Assembly: GCF_053078305.1 (NCBI RefSeq)
Contig: NZ_CP166879.1
Reading direction: 5' to 3' (one strand)
Length of the DNA: 64,000 bases
Positions 49,240-49,545 of the stretch are shown in pieces. Under the pieces are notes generated by a model. That model made no database searches. It worked only from the letters and a program-made list of their open reading frames with translations, and was not told the origin of the DNA. The position numbers and the translations under genes were made by a program. Positions within the stretch are counted from its first letter, which is position 1. Each line of letters starts with the position of its first letter.

Positions 49240-49315
49240 GGGGCTATAGCTCAGCTGGGAGAGCGCTTGCATGGCATGCAAGAGGTCAGCGGTTCGATCC
49301 CGCTTAGCTCCACCA
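49240..49315 (+). tRNA. alaX: tRNA-Ala (anticodon GGC), copy 1 of 3
   Basis: GGGGCTATAGCTCAGCTGGGAGAGCGCTTGCATGGCATGCAAGAGGTCAGCGGTTCGATCCCGCTTAGCTCCACCA. Confidence 0.97.
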
Positions 49316-49354
49316 AATTTTGCACCCAGCAAATTTGGTACGTAAACGCATCGT

Positions 49355-49430
49355 GGGGCTATAGCTCAGCTGGGAGAGCGCTTGCATGGCATGCAAGAGG
49401 TCAGCGGTTCGATCCCGCTTAGCTCCACCA
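49355..49430 (+). tRNA. tRNA-Ala (anticodon GGC), copy 2 of 3
   Basis: Identical 76-nt sequence; 39-nt spacer identical to the next spacer. Confidence 0.97.
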
Positions 49431-49469
49431 AATTTTGCACCCAGCAAATTTGGTACGTAAACGCATCGT

Positions 49470-49545
49470 GGGGCTATAGCTCAGCTGGGAGAGCGCTTGC
49501 ATGGCATGCAAGAGGTCAGCGGTTCGATCCCGCTTAGCTCCACCA
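49470..49545 (+). tRNA. alaW: tRNA-Ala (anticodon GGC), copy 3 of 3
   Basis: Identical 76-nt sequence. Confidence 0.97.

Follow-up and report, generated by a model that had tools for sequence, protein, structure and literature searches.

How did a third tRNA-Ala(GGC) gene come to stand in an E. coli operon for which K-12 has two, and does the additional gene matter to the cell? The question is raised by a window of 64,000 nucleotides, the whole stretch of DNA analyzed here, in which three identical genes of this kind follow one another in tandem. The array, its surroundings and its counterparts in other genomes were compared in order to answer it.

The locus and its surroundings

The array is the alaW-alaX operon of E. 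coli. The operon sits between yfeC, which is divergent and lies upstream, and pdeA, which lies downstream, and gltX and the valU-valX-valY-lysV array are found about 3 kb away. Across 40 kb the window runs colinear with a complete E. coli genome, unbroken near the array, and its top identity to the complete RefSeq E. coli genomes (n = 5,426) was 99.3% for positions 36000-60000 and 98.9% for positions 1-24000. The source would accordingly belong to a lineage absent from these genomes or be filed under another name, such as Shigella. The window is made up of ordinary E. coli core genome including maeB, the eut operon, cys, pts, ligA, gltX, pdeA, and glk. Just 217 of the 5,426 genomes matched window positions 36000-60000 in one place covering at least 80%, and a differing arrangement of this region in most genomes is one possible reason for that number.

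A small FlxA-like gene apparently lies between yfeR and lysV (window ~45700-46140), as indicated by colinearity with a complete genome (L001, 21684-22025), and BL21(DE3) also has a FlxA-like gene after lysV (L009, 6486-6501). A truncated IS200/IS605 tnpA together with an intact TnpB/InsQ was read between gltX and yfeD in the O157:H7, O55:H7, and ETEC4068 haplotypes (loci L003, L004, L012, L021, and L022, ~270-1911 in locus coordinates); neither the window nor the K-12 or B haplotypes have them. The neighbouring valU-valX-valY-lysV array occupies window positions 46143-46540 on the minus strand and consists of three tRNA-Val(UAC) genes and a tRNA-Lys gene, as in K-12. This array also varies in copy number among strains. 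Strain 2014C-4423 has two Val genes before Lys, yet three Ala genes (L002, 1-226), and Edwardsiella has five tandem Val genes and Lys, plus a sixth Val gene (L024, 3715-4528).

Organization of the tRNA-Ala(GGC) array

The three tRNA-Ala(GGC) genes lie on the plus strand at 49240-49315, 49355-49430, and 49470-49545. All three were detected by ARAGORN, which placed the GGC anticodon at positions 34-36 in every copy, and by Rfam model RF00005, which recognized a cloverleaf tRNA in each with 63 bits against a gathering score of 29. The first copy is an exact match to K-12 alaW/alaX, with G3:U70 and an encoded CCA, and a script comparison showed that the second and third copies are identical to it. 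By the same kind of comparison, the two 39-nt spacers on the plus strand at 49316-49354 (AATTTTGCACCCAGCAAATTTGGTACGTAAACGCATCGT) and 49431-49469 are also identical to each other. Tandem Repeats Finder reported the array at 49240-49550 with a period of 115, 2.7 copies, 100% matches, 0 indels, and a score of 622. The initial annotation had described three identical 76-nt genes at a 115-bp period with identical spacers, and this description was upheld in every part. The repeat extends 5 nt (AATTT) beyond the third gene, which brings the homologous block to 81 bp. A perfect tandem repeat of 311 bp is far beyond chance.

The acceptor ends, read from the sequence, are 5' GGGGCUA and 3' UAGCUCC-A-CCA, so that G3 pairs with U70, and the acceptor stem of tRNA-Ala(GGC) also pairs in a computed fold. 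The G3:U70 wobble pair in the acceptor stem is the identity element for AlaRS. A hairpin in the spacer was considered and rejected, as the folded spacer had no significant structure (z = 0.27) and did no better than shuffled sequence.

A putative promoter is located upstream of the array on the plus strand at 49179-49207, where a sigma-70-like site with a -35 element TTGACA, a 17-nt spacer, and a -10 element TATGAT is followed directly by a G+C-rich discriminator, GCCGCCCG (49208-49215, plus strand). No other promoter-like site was found elsewhere before the array or in the spacers. A single upstream consensus promoter had been claimed at first; the single site stands, and with a match of 11 of 12 positions it is near-consensus rather than consensus. 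The promoter-like sequence was invariant in all 23 E. coli loci compared, and the layout of TTGACA, TATNAT, and G+C-rich discriminator also precedes the Edwardsiella and Serratia arrays. Downstream, an intrinsic terminator is predicted on the plus strand at 49553-49585, consisting of a 10-bp G+C-rich hairpin (49553-49576) and then a T run. The hairpin folds with -17.2 kcal/mol (z = -3.5), in agreement with the one downstream terminator noted earlier. Edwardsiella has a hairpin and T run at the same position, with a different sequence. With a single promoter-like site, a single predicted terminator, and no promoter inside the array, the genes are presumably transcribed together into one precursor. 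Precursors of E. coli tRNA operons are processed by RNase E, RNase P, and 3' exonucleases, and on this general pattern the precursor of the array would be processed in the same way.

Copy number among E. coli genomes

The number of copies at this locus was counted in 5,426 complete RefSeq E. coli genomes. Plain BLAST was unable to count copies, since overlapping pieces are joined and two-copy genomes also cover 100% of the query. Two other queries were therefore used, a spacer-tRNA-spacer query of 154 nt, a full match to which requires at least three copies, and a query of upstream flank, tRNA, and downstream flank, a full match to which requires exactly one copy. Matches to a four-copy query were joined into two pieces, so copies were read from the annotation and the span. 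A full spacer-tRNA-spacer match was obtained in 50 of the 5,426 genomes and a full flank-tRNA-flank match in 137 (~2.5%). Two copies were present in ~5,238 genomes (~96.5%), three in 49 (~0.9%), and four in one, GABEEC10 (~0.02%), in which the annotation was read together with the four-copy query. The counts obtained from coverage of the four-copy query agree with the census to within three genomes. With two copies in ~96.5% of the genomes, three copies are not the common state in E. coli.

Reference strains follow the majority. K-12 MG1655 carries alaX and alaW, both with exactly the 76-nt tRNA sequence of the window (locus L006), and W3110 and BL21(DE3) likewise have two copies each; the two copies in K-12 agree with the initial annotation. 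A single copy in W3110, as suggested by a table that lists just alaW (PMC4678842), was rejected, as the W3110 record has two.

Published counts are in line with a two-copy norm. Among 20 genomes of E. coli, Shigella, and E. fergusonii, 17 have two tRNA-Ala(GGC) genes, EDL933, S. dysenteriae Sd197, and ED1a have one, and none has three; differences of one gene more or less in tRNA copy number were reported to be common among strains (PMC4539685). Variation of this size in the gene number of tRNA-Ala(GGC) is already published. In the literature on alaW/alaX and tRNA-Ala(GGC) copy number no paper on a three-copy alaWX allele was found, and Raval et al. (2023) do not mention alaW/alaX. The three-copy alaWX allele is a rare, recurrent, and ordinary variant that is annotated in dozens of public genomes, and it is not novel. 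The census provides a quantified picture of alaWX copy-number polymorphism in E. coli.

Recurrence on different haplotypes

Twenty-one loci were fetched, and their arrays were compared together with flanks of 1,000 bp upstream and 2,400 bp downstream. Spacers were identical within each array in all 15 natural loci with three or four copies, and each of these arrays repeats the spacer allele of its own lineage, four such alleles being seen. Three-copy alleles occur on at least six flank haplotype clusters. On the O157:H7 haplotype, with 0 flank SNPs in 3.4 kb, EDL933 has one copy, Balcarce_24.2 two, and Z1834 three; on the K-12 haplotype, MC1061 has one copy and MG1655 two. Differing copy numbers on SNP-identical haplotypes offer natural near-isogenic material for tests of tRNA dosage.

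The flank haplotype nearest to the window is that of XH990, a two-copy genome separated from it by 4 SNPs in 3.4 kb. OZ197100, at 18 SNPs from the window in the flanks, also has two copies. Both spacers of the window are the single-spacer allele of these two-copy relatives. Three-copy alleles elsewhere in RefSeq (O55:H7 DEC5A, O157:H7 Z1834, 2014C-4423, EC21, and EC9952) have the same unit, spacer, and architecture as the window, whereas their flank haplotypes are 29-75 SNPs from it in 3.4 kb, which makes them independent events rather than products of shared descent.

In ETEC4068 (L012, 2925-3000), the first of the three copies carries G53A and C69T, with spacers and other copies unchanged, and G53A breaks the conserved G53-C61 pair. 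ETEC4075 has the same score of 99.4% as ETEC4068 with the four-copy query. The mutations may represent the decay of a redundant copy or a sequencing error common to two assemblies from one study; the mutated copy hints that an extra copy is dispensable rather than useful. A 50-kb record of Z0117EC0005 that is classed as a plasmid (CP098226.1, 23515-23826) has the same three-copy Ala array as the chromosome; the record probably represents a piece of the chromosome that was duplicated, or a remnant of the assembly.

Origin of the third copy

The most probable reading, with a probability of about 85%, is that the alaW-alaX operon of the window went from two to three copies by one recent misalignment event. 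A pair of 81-bp direct repeats with starts 115 bp from each other is a classic substrate both of unequal sister-chromatid exchange and of replication slippage. An ancestral two-copy array would supply exactly such repeats, each comprising the 76-nt tRNA and AATTT. Unequal sister-chromatid exchange or slippage between copy 1 and copy 2 would misalign them and would lead to the gain or loss of exactly one 115-bp unit of tRNA and spacer. One product would have three copies and two identical spacers, and its reciprocal counterpart a single copy. The features that such an event would predict were all found, namely a parental period of 115, a junction that is the parental spacer, nearest relatives with two copies, one-copy genomes, and recurrence. 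Neither a mobile element nor foreign DNA was found at or between the copies. We infer the molecular mechanism from the observed anatomy, rarity, and recurrence of the array and from the two copies of its nearest relative.

Identical spacers are a weak clock on their own, since the mechanism necessarily gives them. They are informative because the fixed four-copy arrays of Edwardsiella have diverged spacers, and the lack of spacer divergence in the array of the window supports a recent origin. Recent unequal crossing-over, as first proposed from the repeat itself, or slippage in its place, gains further support from the two copies in XH990, from the use of each lineage's own spacer, and from the occurrence of one, two, and three copies on identical haplotypes. 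One-copy alleles outnumber those with at least three copies by 137 to 50, and purely reciprocal exchange does not predict such an excess. The excess suggests that deletion-only routes, including slippage and single-strand annealing, also operate; alternatively, it suggests different selection on the products, or a loss of extra copies that outpaces their gain.

Alternative explanations

Misassembly is the alternative closest at hand, since a source strain with two copies would appear to have three if the assembler had over-expanded a short tandem repeat. This explanation is unlikely for the window and is retained because at least five three-copy records sit in visibly flawed assemblies. In XL10-gold CP081008 (L007) and BL21(DE3) CP081489 (L008), three Ala genes are accompanied by a valU-valX-valY-lysV array collapsed to one Val gene, and the flanks of CP081008 join unrelated gene fragments; two copies are present in K-12 MG1655 and in ~25 further assemblies of the B lineage. 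The adjacent accessions CP083273 and CP083274 likewise show three copies, with an equally low place count. Gene fragments surround the region in Nissle CP007799 (L017), in which the middle copy carries G68T. BL21(RP) CP084683 is a sixth doubtful record, being scored as three-copy through two joined pieces annotated as tRNA-Gly and appearing in the one-copy list as well. The three-copy calls in CP081008, CP081489, and CP007799 are probably artefacts of misassembly, and they serve as a warning that some assemblies labelled complete are prone to miscount the units of short tandem tRNA arrays. The abutting partial genes in CP081008 and CP007799 include rfbB, glf, clpB, and ttcA fragments. The window, however, aligns colinearly for 40 kb with a good genome, its array neighbourhood is unbroken, and its valUXY-lysV array is intact. 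The array measures just 306 bp, so that single long reads should span it. Natural isolates from many different laboratories, ~44 genomes besides this one, show three copies too, and the flanks of the 12 three-copy loci inspected were normal. Horizontal acquisition of the third copy, or gene conversion from another locus, is extremely improbable, and no observation was found in its favor. In the genomes examined this was the one tRNA-Ala(GGC) locus seen, the remaining matches of each genome being weaker (~91% identical in the one listed), and no mobile-element sequence was detected at the copies or between them. The additional unit, together with its spacer, is the same as the unit already in place, and its spacer allele is specific to the lineage; neither a foreign junction nor a divergent spacer occurs at any copy. 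On these identical, lineage-specific spacers horizontal acquisition was rejected.

A further explanation concerns not how the copy arose but why it is there, namely that it is an adaptive and stably inherited dosage allele selected in this lineage for GCC/GCU decoding capacity, as opposed to a recent and nearly neutral accident. As proposed for the array, one precursor would be cut into three identical tRNAs reading GCC and GCU, a decoding that, like expression and charging with alanine, would be expected since the tRNA is identical to the characterized K-12 tRNA, and a third copy could plausibly raise the supply of tRNA-Ala(GGC) up to 1.5-fold relative to a two-copy strain. GCC and GCT make up ~43% of alanine codons in E. 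coli, and more gene copies have been reported to give more tRNA (PMC4539685). Loss of tRNA-Ala(GGC) slows growth and is partly compensated by the cmo5UGC isoacceptor (PMC6103715); as the compensation is just partial, dosage can matter in principle. Larger arrays are fixed in Edwardsiella, and some three-copy alleles, each defined as genomes with the same spacer and flank type, are common to several genomes, namely six (97.4% identity class), five (96% query cover), and the pair ETEC4068/ETEC4075. The case for adaptation is nevertheless a poor one, and the explanation is slightly less probable than misassembly, given that the nearest relative of the window carries two copies, that SNP-identical haplotypes vary among one, two, and three copies, that three-copy genomes amount to 0.9% against 2.5% with one copy, and that one copy in ETEC4068 is mutated at conserved positions. 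The fitness effect of copy number is probably small, because alleles with one, two, three, and four copies all persist in natural isolates, and selection on copy number appears weak, because these four states persist, three-copy alleles are rare, and a copy in ETEC4068 is mutated. A broader proposal, that alaWX is a fast-switching dosage locus (one to four copies) whose copy number turns over so rapidly, and weighs so much on GCC/GCU decoding, that lineages have repeatedly been selected up or down, is unlikely; if true, it would provide a natural and easily genotyped system for the study of selection on tRNA gene dosage within a species. With one recent misalignment event as the preferred reading, the array is a clean example of the gain and loss of units in short tandem tRNA arrays and matters little alone.

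Comparison with known tRNA arrays

In Pseudomonas fluorescens SBW25, tRNA genes have been reported to gain copies through large-scale tandem duplications (PMC7661048, PMC10954465). These duplications reach ~1 Mb, arose under strong selection after deletion of a tRNA gene, and carry other genes along, whereas at alaWX one 115-bp unit was added inside a single operon and there is no evidence of selection. Closer likenesses are the glyVXY array (PMC4539685) and the valU-valX-valY genes of the window, which, like alaWX, consist of head-to-tail identical tRNA genes in one operon and vary in copy number by plus or minus one among strains. Both encode a different tRNA from alaWX. The glyV array has three to four copies in all E. 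coli (PMC4539685), whereas three copies at alaWX are a rare allele.

GTDB species representatives were also scanned for three tandem copies of exactly this tRNA-Ala(GGC), and four matches were obtained, three Edwardsiella species and one Serratia representative. These arrays share with the window the exact tRNA sequence, the tandem arrangement, the presence of Val or Val/Lys genes nearby, and the type of promoter, and Edwardsiella also has the same type of terminator. At the syntenic locus each of the three Edwardsiella species has four copies, and the spacers, 46-56 nt long, have diverged from one another, which marks old, fixed duplications. The Serratia marcescens representative (JADMXW010000037.1; L025, 10616-10933) has three copies and two 45-nt spacers that, like those of the window, do not differ from each other, so that a similar expansion appears to have occurred recently and independently in a second genus.

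The closest known system is the K-12 alaW-alaX operon itself (b2397 and b2396; tRNA-Ala2). It has the same tRNA sequence as the operon of the window and likewise lies between yfeC and pdeA, with the same promoter region and terminator and a spacer of the same length (39 nt). The two operons differ in the number of genes, three in the window versus two in K-12, and by one base in the spacer, which reads AAATTTGG in the window and AAACTTGG in the K-12 allele.
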